Source of the DNA: a virus
Strand: one strand, 5' to 3'
Virus record (IMG/VR): IMGVR_UViG_3300043409_001318
Location: 32,001-96,000 of that record
DNA: 64,000 nucleotides
Below the pieces are notes generated by a model. The model was given only the letters and a program-made list of their open reading frames with translations. It made no database searches and had not been told where the DNA came from. The translations under genes and the position numbers were made by a program. Shown here in pieces: positions 752 through 48,329 of this stretch (its first letter is position 1; every line of letters starts with the position of its first letter).

Positions 752-2320
752 ATGAGTAAGCAATACTGCGATGGTCGCTCTTTAAGTGAAGCAATCCTAA
801 AAGGCGCAAATATATTAGCAGATAACGTTTCTTCTACATTAGGACCAAGAGGAAGAACGGTTATTCTACATGAAAAAGGAAAAACACCAATCATTACGAA
901 AGATGGTGTCACGGTAAGCAATTATGTTGAACTTTCAGATCCATTTGAGAATTTGGGAGCACAAGTAATTAAACAAGCTTCTCAACAAACTGCTACTCTT
1001 GCTGGTGATGGAACAACAACATCAGTCGTTCTTTCACGCGCAATTCTTCGTGAAGCACAGAAATATCTAATTGCTGGTGTTTCTCCTACCGAATTAAAAA
1101 GAGGAATAGATTTAGCCGTTGACGCTTTGGTAATTAGAATTGGAGAAATAGCACAACCAATTTCGTCCGAAGAAGAAATCGAACATATTGCTTCTATCTC
1201 TGCTAATAACGATAGAACAATTGGTAAATTAATTGCTACTGCGGTAGATAAGGTAGGTAAGGATGGTTCTATCACTATTGAAGAAGCACGGTCAGTCGAT
1301 ACTTCTCTTGATATTGTTGAAGGCTTTCGTTTCGATGCGGGATACCTTGCAGGAGCGTTCATCAACGACGAGAGACGAGGGGTAGTAAAATATGAAGACC
1401 CTTATATTCTTGTAACAGATCATAAATTTGACTCCGTTCAAGATATGTTGCCTGTTCTTGAATTAATCGCAAGAGAAGGAAAACCATTTGTAATTGTAGC
1501 AGATGAAATTGAAGGTCAAGCTCTTGCTGCTCTTATTATGAACGCTATGAGAGGCACAATGAAAGTTGCAGCCGTTAAAGCTCCTCGTTATGGTGAAGAG
1601 CGTAAAAACATTCTTAAAGACCTTGCTATTTCAGTAGGAGCAACTTTTGTTTCTCTTGAAAATAGTATGAAGATTGGCGATGTAAAACTCAAAGATTTTG
1701 GTCGTTCAAAGAAAATTGAAATTGCTAAAAACCTTACCACTATCGTAGGTGGAAAAGGTGATATGGAACAAGTTGACCAAAGAATTGAAACAATTAAAGC
1801 TGAACTTCAACAAACTGAATCAATTTACGAGTGTGAACGTCTACAAGAAAGAATTACTCGTCTTGCTTCTGGTATTGCGATTATTCGTGTAGGTGCTCCA
1901 ACTGAAATTGAAATGATTGAGAAGAAGCACCGTATTGAAGATGCCTTAGAAGCCGTCCGTAGTGCCCAACAGGAAGGTATAGTTGCTGGGGGTGGCGTAG
2001 CCCTCCTTAGAGCAGCAGAAGGGATTGTAGACCCAACAGGGAACGAAGAACAAGCACTTGGTTTCAAGATCATAATGAAGGCTATTGAAGAGCCTGTAAG
2101 ACAAATGGCCCTAAATTCTGGTGAGTCGCCAGACATTATTATTAGTATGATTAAAACAGAACATTCTAATTTTGGTTATGATTTCTTGGGTCGTTCTATG
2201 ATTAATATGGTTGAGAAGGGCATTATTGATCCAGCAAAGGTTACAAGATGTGCTCTTCAAAATGCAGCTTCAGCAGCAGGAACTCTAATCACAACTAACT
2301 ATGCTATTGTCCAAATTTGA
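752..2320 (+). CDS. groEL: chaperonin GroEL (Cpn60), phage type
   Basis: TLGPRGR, ITKDGVTV, AGDGTTT, GIVAGGG, GIIDPAKV motifs; 522 aa, no GGM tail. Confidence 0.97.
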   Translation: MSKQYCDGRSLSEAILKGANILADNVSSTLGPRGRTVILHEKGKTPIITKDGVTVSNYVELSDPFENLGAQVIKQASQQTATLAGDGTTTSVVLSRAILREAQKYLIAGVSPTELKRGIDLAVDALVIRIGEIAQPISSEEEIEHIASISANNDRTIGKLIATAVDKVGKDGSITIEEARSVDTSLDIVEGFRFDAGYLAGAFINDERRGVVKYEDPYILVTDHKFDSVQDMLPVLELIAREGKPFVIVADEIEGQALAALIMNAMRGTMKVAAVKAPRYGEERKNILKDLAISVGATFVSLENSMKIGDVKLKDFGRSKKIEIAKNLTTIVGGKGDMEQVDQRIETIKAELQQTESIYECERLQERITRLASGIAIIRVGAPTEIEMIEKKHRIEDALEAVRSAQQEGIVAGGGVALLRAAEGIVDPTGNEEQALGFKIIMKAIEEPVRQMALNSGESPDIIISMIKTEHSNFGYDFLGRSMINMVEKGIIDPAKVTRCALQNAASAAGTLITTNYAIVQI

Positions 2321-2321
2321 T

Positions 2322-2329
2322 ACTAATTA
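2322..2329 (+). promoter_or_regulatory. putative late promoter motif ACTAATTA
   Basis: Exact ACTAWTTA motif, intergenic, upstream of the 2368 gene block. Confidence 0.55.
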
Positions 2330-2367
2330 AAGTATACAAATTTACTTTGTGATGGAGGGTCTTATCT

Positions 2368-2655
2368 ATGGCTACAGGTTCCGAACTTAACGAGCTAAAA
2401 GAAGCCATAACGGCACTTGATAAAAAAGTAGATAGAATGATGAGTTCTATTGAAAATCTTAAAGAAAAGCAAGATGATGTAGCCAAAGACATAAGCAAAA
2501 TAAAAGAAGCGGTATACCATCCAGATGAAGGTTTATACGCAAGAATAAAGATATTAGAAACGTGGAAAGAAACCCAATCAAAGGTTAGTTGGATTGCTAT
2601 AACTACCGTATTTGGTTTAGCAGTTAAGCAATTATGGGATATACTAACAAATTAA
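2368..2655 (+). CDS. coiled-coil protein with C-terminal transmembrane segment
   Basis: Heptad pattern followed by hydrophobic WIAITTVFGLAV. Confidence 0.75.
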   Translation: MATGSELNELKEAITALDKKVDRMMSSIENLKEKQDDVAKDISKIKEAVYHPDEGLYARIKILETWKETQSKVSWIAITTVFGLAVKQLWDILTN

Positions 2656-2667
2656 TAGAGGTGTTAA

Positions 2668-2958
2668 TTGAAAGTAAAAATTTCTTATACAGTAGAACTT
2701 GATGAAGTCCCCAATCAAGTTTATAAGTATTTGTTTAACCAAAGTGATATGTCTTTGGATAAAACGTTAGAAGGTGTATTAAAATTAATCCGTGAAGGTA
2801 ATGTTGAAAGTGCCTTGGAAGATATAGATCTTTTTAGAAAAGATCTTGCTAAATTAGATCTTAAGTTAGACGACGCACAATCGATCCTTGACGGCTACAT
2901 GAAGACGCGCTATGGTAATAACGTAGCAGAGAGCCCCGATGAACAACACAAAGTATGA
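2668..2958 (+). CDS. hypothetical protein
   Basis: TTG start with GAGG RBS; operonic. Confidence 0.75.
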   Translation: MKVKISYTVELDEVPNQVYKYLFNQSDMSLDKTLEGVLKLIREGNVESALEDIDLFRKDLAKLDLKLDDAQSILDGYMKTRYGNNVAESPDEQHKV

Positions 2959-3166
2959 AATAGGACAGCCAATAACTGTTCTGGCTTCATGCGATCTGTT
3001 TTACCCAACCATTAAAAACCCCAATAATTATAAAAAGTCCGAAGCTCCTTTGCTTGGATGGTTTGTTGAGGGTAATGATACAACCGTGACTATTATGACG
3101 GTTGATGATGGACGATATTGGCAAACTCAGTTAGATAGTATTAGAAACTACATGGAGACAAAATGA
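2939..3166 (+). CDS. small SH3/KOW-like protein
   Basis: YEIGQPI start motif; overlaps neighbours. Confidence 0.65.
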   Translation: MNNTKYEIGQPITVLASCDLFYPTIKNPNNYKKSEAPLLGWFVEGNDTTVTIMTVDDGRYWQTQLDSIRNYMETK

Positions 3167-3438
3167 TTCAACTTACAGAAGTAATTGAGAACACAGCAGG
3201 TAAGTATATGGTTAGATCAGTTTATATTAATCCTACCCAAGTTGTTATGGTTCGTGAAGACGTTAGATTGGGATCTATTATGGCCGAAGGTAAACTTGAT
3301 CTTGGGTTTACTCCAAATATGCGTTTTTCTCGCATTACGGTAAGAGGCGGAACAAGTAATTATGATGTTGTTGTTGCTGGTGACCCTACAATAGTATATG
3401 AGAAGGTAAATACTTCTAAAACTCTGCTAAAGGGTTAA
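3163..3438 (+). CDS. hypothetical protein, possibly FlbD-like fold
   Basis: MIQLT...INP..V pattern resembles the FlbD family; weak. Confidence 0.45.
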   Translation: MIQLTEVIENTAGKYMVRSVYINPTQVVMVREDVRLGSIMAEGKLDLGFTPNMRFSRITVRGGTSNYDVVVAGDPTIVYEKVNTSKTLLKG

Positions 3439-3441
3439 ACC

Positions 3442-3705
3442 ATGCACATAGCTTATTATCATATTCATGCTCTTGGAGATTGTGAATATTGCCTTGATGC
3501 ACTTAAACTTCTTCAAGATAATGGTTATCAATATGTTTTAACTCTTTATGATAAATCACCAGAAGCTTTGAATTTCATTAAATATACTATGGATCATCCA
3601 ACGGTTCCAATTATTTATGAGTATCGAAAAGATAAAAGTATTAGGAAAATTGGTGGTTATACAGAGTTGAAGAAGGAGCTTGACAGCCTCCACGAACAGG
3701 AATAG
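3442..3705 (+). CDS. glutaredoxin-like protein
   Basis: CEYC redox motif, TVPII, IGGYTEL. Confidence 0.9.
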   Translation: MHIAYYHIHALGDCEYCLDALKLLQDNGYQYVLTLYDKSPEALNFIKYTMDHPTVPIIYEYRKDKSIRKIGGYTELKKELDSLHEQE

Positions 3706-8704: not shown

Positions 8705-11283
8705 TGAACGATAAAAAAGATTACCAAGTATTATGGGAAGGCTTTATTTCCAATAAAAAAATGTTATTGAATGAAATGGAAGGGCAGTATATGAATTTAA
8801 TTTCTAATGCTACTGCCTATGCCGAAAGCCACCCAGAATTACTACCATTCAAAGAAGTGTTTGGTAATGATTTAAGAAAAGTTATTCCATTCCAACAAAA
8901 GAATGTAGATAAAATTGCTTATCTTTTAAGTATATTTAAATTATTTTCAAGAACAACAGAAGGGAAGCAATATTTAGTACCACAAGTTCAACCAACCACC
9001 GTAAAAGTTAAAAGACAACGCCAAGGTGGTGGTGAAACTTACGAACAAGAACAAACCTTAAATCAACTTGTAGCGGTACATACCTTTATAGATCAAATGG
9101 GTAATTCAAAAACAAGAAATTTGACGATTGTTAATAGTCTAAAATTATTAAATGGTGCTTATAAAAAGTATTTAGAAAAGTCAAATCAAGATCCAAATTC
9201 TGTAAATGTCTCCCAATTTACTATATTAAAAGTATTAGATACTATACCAAGAATGATAGATTGGTGGCAGAAAAATCAATCAAAAATTAATCAAGATCCA
9301 GAAATAGCACAATTATCAAAAGATCTTTCTGACGATATGAGCCAAGAAGCTTGGAAAATGTTTGATACGATTGATGAAAATGAAGGTGCTGGCGAGATAA
9401 CTTCTAAATATTCTATTGTTCTTTCAAGAGTTCCTGTTGATGTGTTAAGAATGTCGGACCATGAAGGGATTAGTTCATGCCATTCTCAACCAAAGAACTA
9501 TGGATCAAATGGATACTTTTATTGTGCTATAGCAGAAGCACAAAATCAAGGTGCTATTGCTTATGTTGTTAATACAGAAGATTTGGAGAATATAGATTTA
9601 AAATCAAAGGAAATCTTTGTAGACCGTGAAAGATCAATAGGAGGAATTAGACCATTATCTCGTATTCGTCTTAGAACTTTAAAAGATACTTCCACAGATC
9701 AAACTATTGCTGTTCCAGAACAAAAGATATATGGTTTATTAATTAATGGTTTTCAAGAATTTATAGATAAATATACGGCTCAATCTCAAAAAGAAATGTT
9801 TGTAGAGCAAGACGAAGATGGAACAAAACAATTAAAACTTCCAATACAAAGAAATCTTACTTATGTTGGTGGTTCTTGGCAAGATAGTCAAATAGGTAGA
9901 AACTTTAAAAGAATGTTAGATTATATAACTGGTTTAGGTGAAGTTAAACCAACCGAAGAACAAAAATTATTGATTAATGATTTTGCTGCGATAAGTGTTA
10001 GATACTCTGGAAATGATACTCAATACGAAGATGATGATGAAGATTATGATGAAGACAATAATGATGAAGACGATCAAAGAGAAGCAGCAGAACAAGAATA
10101 TTACGATCAAATAAGACGAGGAGCTTTTAATACAGATAATTCTTTTATATTTAGAAGTTCTAATTTTAATTGGGTTTGGGGTGAGGGAGTTGAACTAAAA
10201 CTTGTAGCATATACAAAAATTCCAATAGAAACATCTTCATTAAGTAAGAAATATTTTGTTAACGGAGAAGTAGATACAGAAACATTATGTAGTGATATTT
10301 TATCCGCAATAGTAGATAAAGCAGATAAATCTGAAGTAAAAGTTCAACTTGATTACCCAGACGTTGCTATTGATGAAAGTGAAACATATATACAAGGCGA
10401 TAAAGATGATAAATATTTAACACTTAATTTATTTTATATTGAAGATGATATATCAGATATAGGAACATTTGGTTCTCACATATCGGACTTTATCCAATTT
10501 TATAATTCAATAGATAGTTTAGAAGATATATTAAAAGTCTATTTAATAGATAATGGTATTATTAGTGATGGAACATTTAGTATAAGTCAAAGAATAGCAA
10601 ACTTAAAAAATTCTTTTGATCGTGATAAACAAAGAAACTTTACTTATATTGGTGGTGATAAATTTGAGTTTCGTCCTATAACTAATACACAACTTGTTGA
10701 TAGTTCTAAAACTGGAGTATTGTTAACAAAAATTAATGTAGAAGATTATAGAGATATTCGTCATAATTTTGATAGTAGTTTTAATGAAGATATAGTAAGA
10801 TCTTTTGTTAGGGAACAAGAGAAAACACTATCAAGTGCCTATAATAGTTTACAACGAAATTTATTCGATAATATACCAGCTAATTATTTATCTGAATTTA
10901 CAGAACAGGAAAAATTTTCTTTCCTTGGTATTACTGGTGCTTTTAGTGTTGAACTTAAATTTGTTTATATGACCGAAGATATGAAAACAGCAATAGTAAT
11001 GAAAGATAGCGAAGAAGCTAAAATAGTTGGTATTTATGCGGTTCCTGTTATAACAATTGATAGTAAGAAATCACCAGAAGCATTATTGGGACTTATAAAT
11101 TATATGTATATGGTTGATGAAGACCCAGAACAATTTATAGATTTATTATACCTCTCATTTAAGATAGCAGCAAGTCAATATTCTGATCTTAATAATGCTA
11201 TTTCTAAATTGACTGAAAGAAGAAAAAGAGTTATTAAAGAAAGGCTGAAGAATTGGTATAGAAAGAATAAAGGAATTATTTAA
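8704..11283 (+). CDS. large unknown protein, paralogue 2
   Basis: Same core; TAATG translational coupling. Confidence 0.9.
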   Translation: MNDKKDYQVLWEGFISNKKMLLNEMEGQYMNLISNATAYAESHPELLPFKEVFGNDLRKVIPFQQKNVDKIAYLLSIFKLFSRTTEGKQYLVPQVQPTTVKVKRQRQGGGETYEQEQTLNQLVAVHTFIDQMGNSKTRNLTIVNSLKLLNGAYKKYLEKSNQDPNSVNVSQFTILKVLDTIPRMIDWWQKNQSKINQDPEIAQLSKDLSDDMSQEAWKMFDTIDENEGAGEITSKYSIVLSRVPVDVLRMSDHEGISSCHSQPKNYGSNGYFYCAIAEAQNQGAIAYVVNTEDLENIDLKSKEIFVDRERSIGGIRPLSRIRLRTLKDTSTDQTIAVPEQKIYGLLINGFQEFIDKYTAQSQKEMFVEQDEDGTKQLKLPIQRNLTYVGGSWQDSQIGRNFKRMLDYITGLGEVKPTEEQKLLINDFAAISVRYSGNDTQYEDDDEDYDEDNNDEDDQREAAEQEYYDQIRRGAFNTDNSFIFRSSNFNWVWGEGVELKLVAYTKIPIETSSLSKKYFVNGEVDTETLCSDILSAIVDKADKSEVKVQLDYPDVAIDESETYIQGDKDDKYLTLNLFYIEDDISDIGTFGSHISDFIQFYNSIDSLEDILKVYLIDNGIISDGTFSISQRIANLKNSFDRDKQRNFTYIGGDKFEFRPITNTQLVDSSKTGVLLTKINVEDYRDIRHNFDSSFNEDIVRSFVREQEKTLSSAYNSLQRNLFDNIPANYLSEFTEQEKFSFLGITGAFSVELKFVYMTEDMKTAIVMKDSEEAKIVGIYAVPVITIDSKKSPEALLGLINYMYMVDEDPEQFIDLLYLSFKIAASQYSDLNNAISKLTERRKRVIKERLKNWYRKNKGII

Positions 11284-14108: not shown

Positions 14109-14950
14109 TAATGGAAAGCATATTAAATAATTGGAAAGGCTTTCTCAAAGAAGGCTTTACAGAAGAAGGAACCCCAGACCTTAAATACTATGCTTTCGAT
14201 TGGGATGATAATATAGCCTTTATGCCTACCAAAATTATTCTTCTTGATACAGAGGGTAATGAAGTAGGGATGGCTACCGATCATTTTGCGGAGTATAGAA
14301 CAGAGATAGGTAAGAAAGAGTTTGAATATGAGGGGCACACAATAAAAGACTTTGCTCCATTCCCATTTAGAAATTTTAGAGTTGAAGGTGATACTCAATT
14401 CTTACAAGACGTTATGACTGCTAAATTAGGACCATCATTTCCAGACTTTAAAGAATGTGTTGAAGGTGCTTCTATATTTGCTATAATTACAGCAAGAGGT
14501 CATAATCCAGAAACTCTTAAAGAAGCTTGTAAAAAGTATATTCTTTCTGGTTATGGTGGAATTAATACAGAACAAGTTATATCAAATATTAAAAAATATA
14601 ATGAATTGTATAAATCTTCTGGCTCAACAGATAATTCTAAATTAGTAGATGATTATTTACAAATTTGTAAATTTCATCCTGTAACGTTTGGAGAAGGAAG
14701 CGCAGCAAACCCAGAGCAATTAAAAGTAGTTGCTTTAAATAACTTTATTCAATATGTTAATACAGAAGTAAAGAAAGTTAAAAAACACGCTCAAAAAGGT
14801 TCTAAAATTAAAATAGGTTTCTCCGACGATGATTTCAAGAATATTGAAGCGATGATATCTCACTTTGGGTCAAGAGACGAAAAAGGTAAATTTAAAGCTG
14901 GACGACCACAATCATTAAAGATAAAGTATACAGGCAAACCCCGTGGATAA
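14105..14950 (+). CDS. HAD-superfamily phosphatase (RNA-repair-associated HAD-like)
   Basis: FDWDD motif I, ITARGH motif II, GFSDDD motif IV; ILNNWKGFLKE leader. Confidence 0.8.
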   Translation: MIMESILNNWKGFLKEGFTEEGTPDLKYYAFDWDDNIAFMPTKIILLDTEGNEVGMATDHFAEYRTEIGKKEFEYEGHTIKDFAPFPFRNFRVEGDTQFLQDVMTAKLGPSFPDFKECVEGASIFAIITARGHNPETLKEACKKYILSGYGGINTEQVISNIKKYNELYKSSGSTDNSKLVDDYLQICKFHPVTFGEGSAANPEQLKVVALNNFIQYVNTEVKKVKKHAQKGSKIKIGFSDDDFKNIEAMISHFGSRDEKGKFKAGRPQSLKIKYTGKPRG

Positions 14951-40362: not shown

Positions 40363-41586
40363 ATGAAAAATTTATTTGAAAACTGGAAGGCTTACCTCAA
40401 GGAAGCAATCGTAGATACTCCTAGTGAGAGACTGTCTGATGTTTTTGATGATAATGGGGTTATGCAAGAAAAAGTTATCGCTGTTATCAAGGACGCAAAA
40501 GAAAAACTTGATAAGTTCTTAAGCTCTCAAAATTTAAAAATAACAGAAATGTTTGTTGTTGGTGCTGCTGTTACTTATCAGTTTTCTCCTTCTTCCGATA
40601 TCGATACAACCGTTGTTATTCCAAACATAACAGATGAACAGTCGAAACAAGTTGATAATTGGATGGAAGAAAACTTAAATTATTCAAATTGGTCTGTTGA
40701 TGGAAGTAGCCGTCCTTTTCAATTTAAACCAGCTTCATCAAATATTGGATACAAAAATGTAGACGCAGCTTATGATCCTTTTAATAAGAAATGGATTAAA
40801 GAACCAAACCTTGAAACAACAAAGAAAGAATATAATCAAGTTGTTTCGGACCCGCAATCAAAAGAAAGAAAGATGTATGCCTTTGTTGAGAAACACATTC
40901 AACCATCTTTACAACAGTTGCTTAACATATTAAGCAACACAAGTTTAAATGAAAACGTTTCTGATAATATTAAAAATGCAATTAAAAATGCTTTCAAACG
41001 TTATGAAGTATTAAAAAAGAAAAGAGGTACTGCATACGGAGAAGAACCTTCACAAACAGGACGTATAAGCCAAAATTGGGGATTAGGAAACGTTTTATAT
41101 AAATTTTTAGATAGAGAAGGCTATAGTGAAGTATATGGGTATTTGAAAAAAGCAATTAAATCTGACTTCAAGATTGTTGATCAAGATTTTATAAACAATC
41201 TTAAACAAAAATTAGAAAATGTTCTCAAAGGAGAGCATGGTTATTCAGTAAATGAAACAAAGGAAAAAAATAAAATGGCTAAATTAACAGAATCATATTT
41301 AAGAGGTATGATAAAACAAGTAATGAATGAAATGCATGATATGTATGATGATTCACCAGAAGCTATGGGTAATGCTGCTGACGAGTATAGTATGGGCGGC
41401 TTTGATTCTATTGAAGAAACTGCTAAAAGATTGGGCGTTAATCCTATGAAATTAAAAGCATTTATAGAGAAAGAACAAGCTGGTGCAAGTGCTATGTATG
41501 ACGAAATGGGAGATGATCCTAATGACTATTTAGCAGAAAGAAAAAGATTTCTATCTAATTCAAGAACTGCTCCAAAACGTAGATAA
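40363..41586 (+). CDS. Pol-beta-superfamily nucleotidyltransferase with ENW leader and fused C-terminal module
   Basis: VVGAAVTYQFSPSSDIDTTV (G-x-D-x-D); internal RBS and ATG at 41275. Confidence 0.8.
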   Translation: MKNLFENWKAYLKEAIVDTPSERLSDVFDDNGVMQEKVIAVIKDAKEKLDKFLSSQNLKITEMFVVGAAVTYQFSPSSDIDTTVVIPNITDEQSKQVDNWMEENLNYSNWSVDGSSRPFQFKPASSNIGYKNVDAAYDPFNKKWIKEPNLETTKKEYNQVVSDPQSKERKMYAFVEKHIQPSLQQLLNILSNTSLNENVSDNIKNAIKNAFKRYEVLKKKRGTAYGEEPSQTGRISQNWGLGNVLYKFLDREGYSEVYGYLKKAIKSDFKIVDQDFINNLKQKLENVLKGEHGYSVNETKEKNKMAKLTESYLRGMIKQVMNEMHDMYDDSPEAMGNAADEYSMGGFDSIEETAKRLGVNPMKLKAFIEKEQAGASAMYDEMGDDPNDYLAERKRFLSNSRTAPKRR

Positions 41587-41607
41587 TATTTAATATTCTT
41601 CGTTAAG

Positions 41608-41640
41608 AAAAAAATCCCTAGAAGAAATTCTGGGGATTTT
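41608..41640 (+). terminator. intrinsic terminator
   Basis: AAAATCCCTAGAA/TTCTGGGGATTTT stem. Confidence 0.85.
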
Positions 41641-41654
41641 AACTATTTAATAAC

Positions 41655-42266
41655 ATGAAAACACTATTAGAAAATTGGAAAAAATTTATAAATGAGCAAT
41701 CCCACATAATGGGAAACTATGAAGGACAAACTACAGAAAAAAAAGATAAACTTATTTCTTTCTTTGATGATTTGAAAAATATGAACAAAGAAAATGCAAA
41801 TCAAATTGCTTCTGTTTTATTGGGAACAAAACCTTTATATTTTAGTGCTGTAACTGTAATTCCTAATAATAAGTTCTCTCAAAAGTTTTTAGATTATTTA
41901 AGGTCTAGAAATATGATGTTTGCATCAGCTCCAAATATAATGGGAACTGGTAGTAATATATTTTTTATTGGAAATAAAGATAAAGTTGCACAAGCTTTAG
42001 AATTACAAAAAAATCCTTATATTGGTATTGAAAAAATGGGATTTTCTTCTGAGTTTAACAGCTGGGCAAAAGAAAATGCAAAACGTGAGATAGCTGCAAC
42101 TCCCGAATATCATAAAAGAATGGGAATTTTATTGGGATATGGAGAAGCTAATTCCGAGAAATTTTCTCAAGATTATATTTCAAAATGGAAAGAAGTATAT
42201 TCTCATTGGCAACAACAATCTCAAGACACTAATTCTTCTAATAGTTCTAAAACAGAAGTATTATAA
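41655..42266 (+). CDS. hypothetical protein with ENW leader
   Basis: MKTLLENWKKFINE; YHKRMGILLGY motif. Confidence 0.8.
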   Translation: MKTLLENWKKFINEQSHIMGNYEGQTTEKKDKLISFFDDLKNMNKENANQIASVLLGTKPLYFSAVTVIPNNKFSQKFLDYLRSRNMMFASAPNIMGTGSNIFFIGNKDKVAQALELQKNPYIGIEKMGFSSEFNSWAKENAKREIAATPEYHKRMGILLGYGEANSEKFSQDYISKWKEVYSHWQQQSQDTNSSNSSKTEVL

Positions 42267-42280
42267 ATTACTATTTAAAA

Positions 42281-42421
42281 ATGAATTAATCACAATATAA
42301 AGGAAGTATTGATTCTGCACTTAGAGAATTAATGACCGTTCAAGAAGCCCTTTCTAGTGTTGACGAGGATTATATGTTAAGCGAATCCCGTAAATCAAGA
42401 ACTGCTCCAAAACGTAGATAA
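42281..42421 (+). pseudogene. degenerate ORF with TAA at codon 3
   Basis: ATG AAT TAA, then open to ...SRTAPKRR, the same C-terminus as 40363. Confidence 0.5.
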
Positions 42422-42442
42422 TCTTTAATTTAGTTTGTTAGC

Positions 42443-42475
42443 AAAAAAATCCCTAGAAGAAATTCTGGGGATTTT
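42443..42475 (+). terminator. intrinsic terminator (duplicate)
   Basis: Identical to 41608-41640. Confidence 0.85.
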
Positions 42476-42505
42476 CATTATGGGTTATATCTATCTATTT
42501 ATTAT

Positions 42506-42909: not shown

Positions 42910-42923
42910 TACTATTTAATAAC

Positions 42924-43778
42924 ATGAAACTCTTATTAGAAAATTGGAATCGTTATCTTAAAGAAAGTGAAATAGTTTCTTATCAACAACAAGTTGGAGA
43001 TATTGAAACAATCGCTCAAGATATCTCCGATAAAGTTCAAGAGTTTATGTCCGATCATGGATACGATTGGTTACGACAAAATGCCAGCATTGTTGAAAAA
43101 GAAATTCAAGATGAAATAAGAAAAAACTTTAATCGTGATATAACAGAAGCTGGTAGTGGTTCATTTAGAACAACATATATGGTTGATAATGATTATGTTA
43201 TTAAAGTTGATTCTTCTATAAATGGTTCTGGAAAACAAATGAATAAAGAAGATGGAGAAGTTGGAAGAAATCCAAAGTATTCTTCAATCTTTCCAAAAGC
43301 TTTAGGTGTTGCTCCAGATGGTTCTTGGGTTGTATTACAAAAAGTTCATGAGATACAAGATTTAAAAACTTTAATTACTCTTTTTCCAAATAAAATAATT
43401 CCATCTACATCGTTTGGAAAATTTTATACTCAATCATTATTATCTATTGCTTTAAGTTATCAAGTAGCTGCTTTACAATACGACCAAAATCAAATGGATT
43501 TTCACAAATATCAATATGAAAGTATGTTTAAAAATTCTTTAGTAAAAGATATTGGTAGAGACGTTACTTTTCAAGAATTTATAAAATCTTGGATATCTCC
43601 TACATTTATAACGGTAGCAAAAGCTGTTATAGAATATGGTTTAGACGCTGATGAAGCTGTGCGTCCTTATAATTCTGGATATGTTGTTGAAGAGAATGGA
43701 GAAAAAAGATTTGTTATTCTTGATTCATCCGTTCAAAAAACCGTGGAAGCTGGTCTTAATGCTTTTAACAACCCATAA
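42924..43778 (+). CDS. protein-kinase-like fold protein with ENW leader (atypical)
   Basis: GSGSFRTTY G-loop, YVIKV, VRPYN, VILDS. Confidence 0.78.
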   Translation: MKLLLENWNRYLKESEIVSYQQQVGDIETIAQDISDKVQEFMSDHGYDWLRQNASIVEKEIQDEIRKNFNRDITEAGSGSFRTTYMVDNDYVIKVDSSINGSGKQMNKEDGEVGRNPKYSSIFPKALGVAPDGSWVVLQKVHEIQDLKTLITLFPNKIIPSTSFGKFYTQSLLSIALSYQVAALQYDQNQMDFHKYQYESMFKNSLVKDIGRDVTFQEFIKSWISPTFITVAKAVIEYGLDADEAVRPYNSGYVVEENGEKRFVILDSSVQKTVEAGLNAFNNP

Positions 43779-43790
43779 GGATTATTTATC

Positions 43791-44747
43791 ATGATGAAAT
43801 TATTATTAGAAAATTGGAAAAGATATATTAAAGAAGAATTAAGACCAGAAGATTATGAAGATTTCCCACAAAAAGAAAATGAAGAAGCAGAAGCTTATTT
43901 AGGAAATCCAAAAGAAATTGGTGAATTTATTTATAGAGCTTTTCGTGAAGAACTTGAAAAGCAACCAGATGATACTGAAGCTCAACTTTGGTCCGATAGA
44001 ATTGTAAGCGATGCTAATTCTAAAATTAGAAAACAATTTCCAAATGTAAAGTATCTTGGTCATGGTGTATTTAGAACTGCTTTTACGTTAAACAAAAATT
44101 TAATTATAAAAGTTAATACTTCTTTTACAACTGATAGCGGGCAGTTAATGAATAAAGACGATTTTACATTAAGTCGTGATTCTAAAACTTCTAAAATATT
44201 TCCAAGAGTTTATTCTCACGATCCAAACTTTAATTGGATTGTTATGGACTTGGTTTTTCCAATTGTAACACCAAAAGAATTTTGTTCTTTCTTTCCAAAC
44301 AAATTAATTCCTTCTTCTTTGATTAGCAGTAATACTATATTTTATAGATCAATATTACAAAATTCTATAAGATATAAAGTTGCTAAAGTTGCACAAGACG
44401 ACGAAACACTGAAAAAGGTTCAATACTTACATGATGCTACTATTAAAACTACATTAGAACCAATAGTAGGTAAACCTATAACTGTGGAAGAAATAGTTAG
44501 TGGATTTGACCAAACATTTTTTGAAGTTTGTAGTGCTATTGAAAAATATAATATAAAAATTATAGAAATAAGACCAAATAATACAGGCTTCACGATTGGT
44601 GAAAGTGGTAATAAACAATTTGTAATTTTAGATTCTTCAATTGACGCAAGTTTAAAAAAAGGACTTAATGAACCAGAACCTAAAGCTGCTCCTCCAAAAC
44701 CAGATAAACAAATATTAAATGCTGTAACTGCTCCCCCTAAAAAATGA
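43791..44747 (+). CDS. protein-kinase-like fold protein with ENW leader (atypical), paralogue
   Basis: GHGVFRTAF, LIIKV, EIRPNN, VILDS. Confidence 0.8.
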   Translation: MMKLLLENWKRYIKEELRPEDYEDFPQKENEEAEAYLGNPKEIGEFIYRAFREELEKQPDDTEAQLWSDRIVSDANSKIRKQFPNVKYLGHGVFRTAFTLNKNLIIKVNTSFTTDSGQLMNKDDFTLSRDSKTSKIFPRVYSHDPNFNWIVMDLVFPIVTPKEFCSFFPNKLIPSSLISSNTIFYRSILQNSIRYKVAKVAQDDETLKKVQYLHDATIKTTLEPIVGKPITVEEIVSGFDQTFFEVCSAIEKYNIKIIEIRPNNTGFTIGESGNKQFVILDSSIDASLKKGLNEPEPKAAPPKPDKQILNAVTAPPKK

Positions 44748-44999: not shown

Positions 45000-45293
45000 A
45001 TGAAAATTACAGAAGCTAAAATACGTCAAGTAATAAAAGAAGAAATACAAAACGTATTAAATGAAATGCACAATGAAGATCCAACATCATTAGGACTTAC
45101 TGGTCCAAAAGTTGCTGCTGGCGTTGCTGGGGCTGTTGGTGTCAACGGATTAATTAAATACTTAGAACAAGCTTTAATGGAACATCCAGAATGGAGAGAT
45201 AACGTAGAAAAATTTTTAATGGCAGGCAACGAAACAATTAATAGTGTTGGTAATGCTGTCAGCGGTATGTTTGAAAATAAAAAAAGAAAATAA
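45000..45293 (+). CDS. probable virion protein
   Basis: MKITEAKIRQVIKEEIQNVLNE leader; late motif at 44962. Confidence 0.75.
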   Translation: MKITEAKIRQVIKEEIQNVLNEMHNEDPTSLGLTGPKVAAGVAGAVGVNGLIKYLEQALMEHPEWRDNVEKFLMAGNETINSVGNAVSGMFENKKRK

Positions 45294-46637: not shown

Positions 46638-46919
46638 ATGTTAACAGAAAGAAGACTTAGACAAGTAATTCGCAAAATAATTATGGAAGTTACTGGTGCG
46701 GACGCAGAAAGATTTACGGCAATTGCCAATTCAGCCAGACAACAAATGGGTTCTGAACAAGAAAAATTTTTTAATAATAAATTAGGTAGTTCCGATAAAG
46801 AAAGAGCTAATAACATACAAAGGCTTCAACATTTAATTATGGGTGGAAAAGATATTGAACCTAAAGATAAGGGAGCAGTTTCTACTCTAATCCAGAAAGC
46901 ACTTGCTGAATTAAAATAA
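46638..46919 (+). CDS. probable virion protein
   Basis: MLTERRLRQVIRKIIME leader. Confidence 0.75.
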   Translation: MLTERRLRQVIRKIIMEVTGADAERFTAIANSARQQMGSEQEKFFNNKLGSSDKERANNIQRLQHLIMGGKDIEPKDKGAVSTLIQKALAELK

Positions 46920-46950: not shown

Positions 46951-47358
46951 ATGGAACGTCCTTCGTGGGATTTTATTTGGTCCTCATTTGCTTCTACAAT
47001 CGCTCAACGTTCTATGGACCCTAACTTCAAGGTGGGTGCCGTAATCGTTCCAGAAGACAATACAGGTGTGCTGGCGATTGGATATAACGGCGATGAGAAA
47101 GGTGGAGAGAATTGTAGGGATAGCGAAGAAACTGGTTCATCTGGTTTTATTCACGCTGAGATAAACGCACTTATTAAGATGGATTTTAATAACCCAAAAA
47201 GAAAGAAAATGTATGTAACTCTTTCTCCTTGTAAGATGTGCGCGAAAGCAATTATTAATGCAGATATAAAAGAAGTTTATTACATACAAGAATACCGTGA
47301 TGATGCAGGAATTAAATTACTACAAAATCACGGTATTAAGGTTTGTAAGATTATCTAA
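46951..47358 (+). CDS. dCMP deaminase family
   Basis: HAEINAL and SPCKMC zinc motifs. Confidence 0.92.
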   Translation: MERPSWDFIWSSFASTIAQRSMDPNFKVGAVIVPEDNTGVLAIGYNGDEKGGENCRDSEETGSSGFIHAEINALIKMDFNNPKRKKMYVTLSPCKMCAKAIINADIKEVYYIQEYRDDAGIKLLQNHGIKVCKII

Positions 47359-48329
47359 ACAGGAATGTCGGAAGGCTTTGAAGTTCTTGTTGGTCTTTCG
47401 TTTGGATCGGCTGGTGTTAAAGCGGTTATATCTGATCTTGAATCAAGATAATTAATAACTGCTTTTAATACAAGCATAAGCATGTTTACGTCTGCTAATG
47501 CATCGTGCCAACCTTTATTTACAATGTCAAAGGCATCAATTAATTTACCAAGGGAAACGGTAAAGTATGGAGCACCAGCTTTATTTACTGCTGAGAGTTT
47601 AGTTAATAAACGCTTATCTTTCTCTGATAGATTTTTTCCTTGTTCTTCATCAGCTTTAAATTGTTTTAAGGCTGGTGTAATAAACATTTTGAATACTGGT
47701 ACTGTATCTAAAACAGCATCGTCAAGAACTGGAATTCCATATCTTTGGTGCATTTCATTAAGGTATCCAACATCGAACGGAGCATTTTGAGCTACCAATA
47801 TTCTATCTGGGTATTGTTGTACAAATTCATTAAATTTTGTTAGTGCTTCTTCCATAGATTCAAAACGAAATTCTGGTGCTATACCTTTTTTCATTCTTTT
47901 CTTTGGATCTTGTGAAACACCATAACCTGTCATAGAAAAGATTTGTGGAATAGTCATAAATGAGCTTTTCTCACCAGCAGCAGCTCTTTCTGCTTGCTTT
48001 TTCTTTTCCCAACCCATAAATCCTTTTGTTCTGTCGGATAAATTAATTTTAATATTAATTTGACCTATGATTTGTGGTTCTTGACCTTCTTCAAATCCTT
48101 TTGGATCAACAGCAATAGCAGCTAATTGTGTGATTTGATTGTAATCTTTTTCTGGTTTAAGACCTGTTGTTTCTGTATCAAAGAAAATCCAAGTTTTGTT
48201 TCTTGCACTTTCAACATTATTTCTAAATTCTGGAAAACTTCCACCAATTTCATCTCTGGTCATAGTTCTTTCATTAACGACTTTTTTAAACCCTCTCCAG
48301 CTTTCCATAATCAAACCAAAATTTTTCAT
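47355..48329 (-). CDS. DEDDh 3'-5' exonuclease (DnaQ-like) with leader
   Basis: FFDTETTG, VAQNAPFD, WHDALAD; IMESWRGF..VVNE leader; ACTAATTA on minus strand 48352-48359. Confidence 0.92.
   Translation of the reverse strand: MKNFGLIMESWRGFKKVVNERTMTRDEIGGSFPEFRNNVESARNKTWIFFDTETTGLKPEKDYNQITQLAAIAVDPKGFEEGQEPQIIGQINIKINLSDRTKGFMGWEKKKQAERAAAGEKSSFMTIPQIFSMTGYGVSQDPKKRMKKGIAPEFRFESMEEALTKFNEFVQQYPDRILVAQNAPFDVGYLNEMHQRYGIPVLDDAVLDTVPVFKMFITPALKQFKADEEQGKNLSEKDKRLLTKLSAVNKAGAPYFTVSLGKLIDAFDIVNKGWHDALADVNMLMLVLKAVINYLDSRSDITALTPADPNERPTRTSKPSDIPV

Follow-up and report, generated by a model that had tools for sequence, protein, structure and literature searches.

In T4, the genes for core and scaffold proteins sit beside the gene for the prohead protease, and the internal proteins IPI, IPII and IPIII, together with Alt, illustrate how unrelated proteins from a variable locus can share a short leader, running from MK..E to [LI]-x-E, alongside a gp21-type protease. 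Alt is an ADP-ribosyltransferase and provides a precedent for an enzyme as head cargo; no kinase is known among the T4 internal proteins. Cleavage by gp21 occurs after the Glu of [LI]-x-E, and 10 residues are enough for head targeting (reviewed in PMC9026906). The phage kinase T7 gp0.7 (T7K), an early, unpackaged protein, acts on host and defence proteins and disarms many bacterial defences (PMC13645617). Here we describe two adjacent genes, A and B, within a 64,000-nucleotide (nt) stretch of viral DNA (the window: bases 32001-96000 of the 184,352-bp IMG/VR virus record IMGVR_UViG_3300043409_001318, rated complete by CheckV). The probability that their products are active phosphotransferases of an unnamed, virus-only family of kinase-like proteins, which would be loaded into the phage head, injected and act on host targets, is put at about 0.5. 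That minimal kinases of a virus-only family enter T4-type capsids by means of interchangeable tags, which the protease can remove, and then pass with the DNA into the host is offered tentatively, at somewhat short of even odds.

The pair is laid out as follows (ORF, open reading frame; aa, amino acids; pLDDT, predicted local distance difference test).

42911-42920, + strand: promoter-like motif ACTATTTAAT, 4 nt upstream of the start codon of A
42924-43778, + strand: ORF of kinase-like protein A, 284 aa, a paralogue of B; AlphaFold2 model
42924-42965, + strand: leader of A, residues 1-14 (MKLLLENWNRYLKE), ending in the protease motif L-K-E and putatively a propeptide for capsid targeting; family-conserved leader columns
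43152-43169, + strand: glycine loop of A, G77-S-G79-S-F-R82, with G79 and R82 invariant
43203-43205, + strand: β3 lysine K94 of A (VIKV), invariant
43653-43673, + strand: catalytic loop of A, E244-A-V-R-P-Y-N250, with its acid 6 residues before the Asn; N250 is nearly invariant
43722-43730, + strand: metal-binding D267-S-S of A (VILDSS), the DFG equivalent, with the Asp invariant
43791-44747, + strand: ORF of kinase-like protein B, 318 aa; AlphaFold2 model, Foldseek and VIA searches
43791-43835, + strand: leader of B, MMKLLLENWKRYIKE, residues 1-15, ending in I-K-E; family-conserved leader columns
44058-44075, + strand: glycine loop of B, G90-H-G92-V-F-R95, invariant columns
44109-44111, + strand: β3 lysine K107 of B (IIKV), invariant
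44151-44162, + strand: αC motif of B, N121-K-D-D124, with an invariant Asn and an acid that is D or E throughout, located in model helix 114-128
44565-44582, + strand: catalytic loop of B, E259-I-R-P-N-N264, with Glu at the position of the canonical catalytic Asp, -5 from the Asn
44631-44639, + strand: metal-binding D281-S-S of B (VILDSS), with the Asp invariant
44673-44744, + strand: C-terminal tail of B, rich in Pro and Lys and disordered (pLDDT under 50 from residue 282 onwards)

A and B are true paralogues (BLASTP, 32% identity, E 3e-45), and the motifs that they have in common are therefore not there by chance. A first-pass annotation, made by a model from the letters of the window, had described both ORFs as kinase-fold proteins with the Gly loops GSGSF and GHGVF, the β3 Lys in VIKV and IIKV, the catalytic-loop Asn, ILDS and an ENW leader; these elements had been read exactly, the catalytic ones stand at family-invariant columns, and both proteins do begin MKLLLENW..[LI]KE. 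The true start of B is probably the second ATG, at 43794, because most orthologues begin MKLLLENW. The two genes are probably co-transcribed, since B starts 12 nt after the stop of A and the promoter-like motif precedes A only.

Structural models have indicated that A and B are kinase-like in fold. The AlphaFold2 model of A has a pLDDT of 92.3 and a predicted template modelling score (pTM) of 0.86; that of B has a pLDDT of 78 overall and of 83-96 over the folded core, residues ~41-280. In both, the chain runs β1-β2-β3(K)-αC-β4-β5-αD, through a helical insertion to αE, the catalytic loop, β7-β8, D-S-S and a single helix; the chain ends 17-37 residues past D-S-S. A five-stranded N-lobe sheet with αC, joined to a helical C-lobe that bears the catalytic loop, is thus present, as in protein-kinase-like folds generally. 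Among the matches listed when B was compared with the PDB using Foldseek, all have the kinase fold (APH(2''), CK1, TTBK1, ERK2, choline kinase and PsiK), at weak E-values of about 2e-3. In the exhaustive VIA search, the best match of B is ArkI (Z 7.1) and most of the listed matches are kinase-fold; A matches APH(2'') (Z 6.8), Rio2 (Z 6.4) and ArkI (Z 6.3), and kinase-fold proteins make up 47-48 of its best 50 PDB matches. In BFVD there are 47 matches at E<=1e-3, mostly uncharacterised proteins of large myophages with a few annotated kinases or T7-kinase homologues. The case for the fold, modest for any single Z-score, is built on the dominance of one superfamily in these lists together with the order and spacing of the motifs. 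The kinase fold proposed in the first-pass annotation is supported in this way, by the models and by near-exclusive kinase-fold matches in the PDB.

The best structural matches belong with the minimal or atypical kinases (RIO, Bud32, ArkI, SteC, OspG, NleH and HopBF1), with which A and B have in common a compact fold of ~200-250 residues and a truncated C-lobe; the effector kinases are also delivered ready-made into the target cell, as A and B would be if the leader has been read correctly. The likeness has its limits, in that Z-scores are 5-7 at identities of 8-16%, A and B have a helical insertion before the catalytic loop rather than helices after the DFG, and the G-x-G-x-x-R loop is a family-specific feature, as is the invariant αC Asn. 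A and B also depart from Hanks kinases: the models contain neither an activation segment with APE nor helices αF-αI, and PF00069 gives no Pfam match for A or B and a match in only 1/81 relatives, at E 0.021.

The conservation of the active site was counted over 178 retrieved members, each column where it is covered. The N-lobe pattern of G-x-G-x-[FY]-R followed by [VI]-[IL]-K is invariant, with the second Gly of the glycine loop, its Arg and the β3 Lys each present in 171/171. The αC Asn is found in 172/172, and the αC acid, which lies inside the αC helix of the model, is acidic in 100% (D 87, E 85 of 172). The catalytic-loop Asn is kept in 161/165 and the metal-binding Asp in 165/165; a Trp column is conserved in 100% as well. 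The only PDB sequence match of the family profile at its level is to the N-lobe of SteC (E 5e-4). Profile positions 227-261 match dozens of p38 and MEK chains over residues 139-173 at sub-threshold E-values of 0.4-1.3, and because this alignment is ungapped, the acid, Asn and Asp (positions 238, 243 and 256 of the rebuilt profile) fall on D150, N155 and D168 of p38; the Asp lies 13 positions after the Asn, as it does in p38. A profile made from just the catalytic segment of five sequences lacked the strength to recover PDB kinases, and the positions were mapped by arithmetic instead.

The family to which A and B belong is, on the searches made, large, so far virus-only, and without a name or a Pfam or NCBIfam model. 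A word-indexed search with B returned 30 relatives, all unnamed, at identities down to 25%; among 1.84 billion representatives, the family profile matched 1,353 with E<=1e-3, of which 263 had E<=1e-10; each representative stands for a cluster at 50% identity. Members are typically 260-320 aa long, and a few are fused within proteins of 500-1,000 aa. Pfam, NCBIfam and PHROGs hold no informative model for A or B, the sole PHROG match being that of phrog_4301 (function unannotated) to the N-lobe of B (E 7e-7). When PDB sequences were searched with phmmer, B had no match and A matched SteC alone, at E 0.18. ESM Atlas neighbours of the family are viral without exception, and the link to T7 kinase that they and the BFVD matches offer is at the level of a lead.

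Two described families were considered as homes for A and B and rejected. T7K resembles them in being a phage minimal kinase fold with a non-DFG metal motif (DPV in T7K, DSS here), and hhalign aligns the glycine loop and β3 Lys region over 32 columns. The alignment, however, is confined to the N-lobe, at a probability of 34%, with no significant full-length relationship, and neither homology across the kinase domain nor the DPV motif is found in A and B. They also lack the shut-off or DNA-binding C-terminal domain of T7K, their acid is Glu, and, whereas T7K is early and cytoplasmic, they bear a leader of the cleavable, head-targeting type. YrbL (PF10707, of the kinase clan) has the same G-x-G-x-x-R ... 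I-K-[IV] pattern in its N-lobe; PF10707 has no match in A, in B or elsewhere in the genome, hhalign to E. coli YrbL gives a probability of 1%, and sub-threshold YrbL matches occur in 13/81 family members.

If A and B are active kinases, their substrate might be RNA, as for the 2'-OH kinase ArkI, or a small molecule, sugar or lipid, as for APH, choline-kinase or WaaP-like enzymes, perhaps in concert with a nearby nucleotidyltransferase. Their best matches include APH(2'') and, with a Z of 7.1 (B) and 6.3 (A), the tRNA kinase ArkI; the models have no activation segment, a leader-tagged Pol-β-like nucleotidyltransferase is encoded two genes upstream, and one family member, P0123, is fused to a poly(A)/CCA-polymerase head domain. 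However, protein kinases (Rio2, Mps1, PINK1 and YabT) reach the same Z-scores as ArkI and APH, an R/K-P behind the acid is a Ser/Thr-kinase signature absent from APH and choline kinases, and only one such fusion was seen among ~150 representatives. Substrates of this kind are regarded as unlikely. P0123 itself (metagenomic, 1,010 aa) has a leader-like N-terminus, then a PolyA_pol head domain with an RNA-binding domain, and the kinase-family domain at its C-terminus, an arrangement that hints at a link between nucleotidyltransferase and kinase cargo.

The argument that A and B travel in the virion begins with the genome, whose G+C content is ~32%. It encodes a T4-type portal (Portal_T4, E 2e-77), a prohead protease (154097-154690 of the genome; Peptidase_S77, 97 bits; phrog_207, E 2e-53) and a major capsid protein (Gp23, E 9e-60). 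Since its protease is only 46% identical to those of the nearest cultured relatives, Microcystis phage Mel-JY01 and the Flavobacterium 'immuto' phages, the source virus is, by this sequence measure, a distant, uncultured T4-like myophage. The leader has the consensus M-K-x-L-x-E-N-W-x-x-[YF]-[LI]-x-E; in an 81-member family alignment the final E is present in 79/81 and the L or I two residues earlier in 73/81. Searched as a DNA pattern, it occurs in the 184-kb genome 4 times on the + strand and 0 times on the - strand, with 0 occurrences of a reversed-pattern control. It heads four consecutive, otherwise unrelated ORFs, at 40363, 41655, 42924 and 43791, of which the first two are the following.

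40363-41586, + strand: leader-tagged ORF, 407 aa, with weak nucleotidyltransferase (Pol-β-like) matches, two genes upstream of A
41655-42266, + strand: leader-tagged ORF, 203 aa, family unassigned, in the same cassette array

Looser copies are found at 14111 in the window, in an exonuclease gene (47355-48329, - strand) and at 9402 in the genome. Five related contigs (L006 and L016-L019) have differing sets of leader-tagged genes at the same place, non-kinase cargo included: L006 has three kinase paralogues among its leader-tagged genes, and in L018 a 423-aa protein (2061-3332) with the leader-like start MEKYFKGWRKYLKE contains an SLT lytic-transglycosylase domain (E 1e-14). Enzymes of this type are typically internal to the virion or ejected from it. 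In some family members the ENW leader is replaced by a second one, x-L-R-x-I-I-K-E-E-L (LRxIIKEEL), which also heads four ORFs that flank the prohead protease gene, at 153401, 154705, 155128 and 156293 of the genome. T4 ipII and ipIII begin MKTYQEFIAE and ipI begins MKTFKEF, which is the same M-K-x-aromatic/aliphatic-x-E start as that of the leader. The present leader differs from those of T4 in having 14-15 residues, not 10, and another sequence, and its putative cargo is a kinase. In both models it forms a low-confidence helix apart from the fold (pLDDT 66-72, below the core, in A; below 50 for residues 1-32 in B). A literature search with the leader string returned only unrelated words. Because the leader ends in an [LI]-x-E cut site, the genome has its own protease, the tagged neighbours are unrelated and a second leader can be swapped in, packaging of A and B into the head and their injection are likely but unproven.

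Alternatively, A and B could be ordinary cytoplasmic kinases like T7K, itself early and unpackaged (PMC13645617), and the leader a helix for oligomerisation, a tag for degradation or regulation, or a remnant of cassette recombination. Recombination would fit the similarity of the leader region and its upstream DNA between cassettes (67-75% over 69 nt). It would not explain why copies of the leader use different Leu codons, suggesting that the peptide is under selection, nor why the [LI]-x-E end is near-invariant and is the cut site of a protease encoded in the same genome; nor does a cytoplasmic role account for a second leader that marks the genes flanking the prohead protease, or for a leader on an SLT-domain protein. 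This explanation, too, is held to be unlikely. The suggestion in the first-pass annotation that the kinases are injected has consequently gained good circumstantial support, from the protease motif, the T4-type protease, portal and capsid protein and the modular leaders; its companion suggestion of shifted chemistry fares differently, as described below.

Further observations concern the leaders and the parts of A and B that adjoin them. A fuller form of the second leader, x-L-R-x-[IV]-I-K-E-E-[IL]..N-E-M, is present on small proteins of the window (45000-45293 and 46638-46919); the second leader also occurs in frame at ~41275, inside the ORF 40363-41586, and the matching piece of L006 is a separate gene of 132 aa. 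On members such as P0119, P0122, P0126, P0132 and P0052, a third leader, x-L-x-K-L-A-x-x-L-x-x-x-G-L-x-E-E-A, takes the place of the ENW one. Between leader and kinase core (residues ~30-40 of B) there is a conserved E-x-x-[YHF]-[FL]-G, with an equivalent in most family members; its Gly is invariant in close relatives and found in 60/81 of the wider family. The tail of B is preceded by a second L-N-E site at residues 292-294, and the G-L-N/G-E-P motif is kept in orthologues; this may be a C-terminal processing site. A T-A-P-x-(x)-[KR]-[KR] C-terminus on a disordered tail is common to B (44673-44744) and the 407-aa leader-tagged ORF (41560-41583).

The chemistry of A and B was called into question by the first-pass annotation, which noted that both lack the canonical catalytic Asp and proposed shifted or non-phosphotransfer activity. 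The first point is literally true, and a conserved carboxylate is nevertheless present, -5 from the Asn in B and -6 in A. The spacing of B is that of 143/163 members, and the spacing of A that of 18/163. D-[L]-K-P-x-N is the Ser/Thr-kinase motif of Hanks subdomain VIb, and family members with Asp have such loops as D-I-R-P-H-N and D-F-K-P-A-N. The catalytic acid is E in 93 and D in 72 of 165 members, and on a FastTree of 155 cores, from which the catalytic-acid column had been left out, D and E have switched at least 15 times. The Glu therefore looks like the equivalent of the catalytic base, and an acid that is always D or E, repeated switching and canonical loops in relatives make the family look like active kinases that have undergone a conservative D-to-E exchange rather than pseudokinases. 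Kinase-fold enzymes with non-canonical chemistry (AMPylation, glutamylation or nucleotidyl transfer with a flipped or shifted nucleotide) would accord with the missing Asp, with an invariant Arg in G-x-G-x-x-R and an αC Asn that are foreign to classical kinases, and with the atypical C-lobe. They are hard to square with the interchange of D and E at a position that is always acidic, with D-[IF]-[RK]-P-x-N loops in relatives, or with retention of the β3 Lys, αC acid, Asn and DFG-Asp, and they are considered distinctly improbable. The pseudokinase class of SelO, SidJ and NiRAN was likewise set aside: PDB searches gave no sequence match to any of the three, and the acid is kept at the canonical column in every member. 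As far as sequence can tell, the absence of a catalytic Asp does not here mean a pseudokinase, a carboxylate occupying the catalytic position, and A and B are most likely catalytically active phosphotransferases. That they are catalytically irrelevant head-core or scaffold parts with a leftover kinase-like fold, a view to which the long N-terminal helix of A and weak, sub-threshold matches of N-terminal helices to T4-type scaffold families (PF25623, E 0.007; phrog_237, E 0.027) might lend something, is very improbable, because a purely structural role would not explain the strict conservation of catalytic residues in ~170 diverged members.

Several observations weigh against active, head-borne kinases with host targets. 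The Z-scores of 5-7 are under the tool's comfort level of 8 for one match, and RNA and small-molecule kinases (ArkI and APH) are among the top structural matches. The C-lobe is atypical, with no activation segment or αF-αI and with a helical insertion between αD and αE, so that classical kinases are no guide to how a protein substrate would bind. It is unusual for a kinase to have Glu as its natural base, the catalytic acid of A is out of register by one residue, and the nucleotide might be posed differently, given the non-classical Arg of the glycine loop and Asn of αC. Finally, no family member was found in cultured phages: 50,697 phage records were searched by tblastn with A, B and a distant member, without a match, and the family profile likewise found nothing in Microcystis phage Mel-JY01 or Flavobacterium phage immuto, the closest cultured phages by protease.

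If A and B are nevertheless injected kinases, a mechanism can be proposed, modelled on T4 Alt and on the way T7K counters defences. The leader tag would carry the enzyme into the prohead core, where the T4-type prohead protease would remove it after [LI]-x-E; the mature kinase would then ride with the DNA and enter the host at injection, ready to phosphorylate host targets, for takeover or anti-defence, before phage genes are expressed. Catalysis would rely on the usual set of Lys, αC acid, Asn and Asp, the base being a Glu, in place in B and shifted by one residue in A, and the R/K-P after the acid points to protein substrates (Ser/Thr or dual-specificity). A and B would be the first phage protein kinases delivered by the virion. 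Known phage kinases are made after the onset of infection, and a capsid-delivered kinase would act earlier, reaching targets in takeover or defence ahead of any phage transcription. An arms race over substrates would account for the tandem, diverged paralogues, the Glu would be a naturally used catalytic base, its free exchange with Asp a natural experiment on kinase catalysis, and the cargo of T4-type heads would extend beyond IPI-III and Alt. A name and a testable function for a family of 1,353 representatives would annotate many 'hypothetical' genes, and the exchangeable leaders might be used as tools to load non-coli phages with foreign proteins.

The genome has 13 plus-strand and 3 minus-strand copies of the 9-mer ACTATTTAA, and ACTATTTAA(T/A) lies mostly 4-30 nt upstream of start codons, those of leader-tagged genes included; its sites in the window are 40333, 41643, 42912, 44963 and 49953, with more elsewhere in the genome. 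It is a candidate phage promoter, distinct from the T4 late motif TATAAATA, which is absent upstream of the leader-tagged kinase genes. A scan for sigma-70 promoters found 25, not above the 28 expected from shuffles. A 91-nt direct repeat has copies at 41556-41646 and 42391-42481 that are 89% identical; it takes in the closing part of a coding region (...SRTAPKRR stop) together with a hairpin and the T run behind it. Downstream of the 203-aa ORF, the second copy comes after a gene remnant of ~120 nt. The repeat looks like a cassette boundary left by recombination.

Two proteins outside the array have leader-like sequences in other settings. The minus-strand gene at 47355-48329 encodes a DnaQ/RNase T-like exonuclease that begins MKNFGLIMESWRGFKKVVNE, a leader-like variant, and its L006 homologue reads ..IMENWRGF.... 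A 455-aa ORF at 2218-3585 of the genome has an internal leader-like MDKILQNWDKFLNE ~175 residues in and, in its N-terminal part, an H-I-T-L-L-Y-G similar to the 2H-phosphoesterase motif. Its product may consist of two modules with a protease site at the join.

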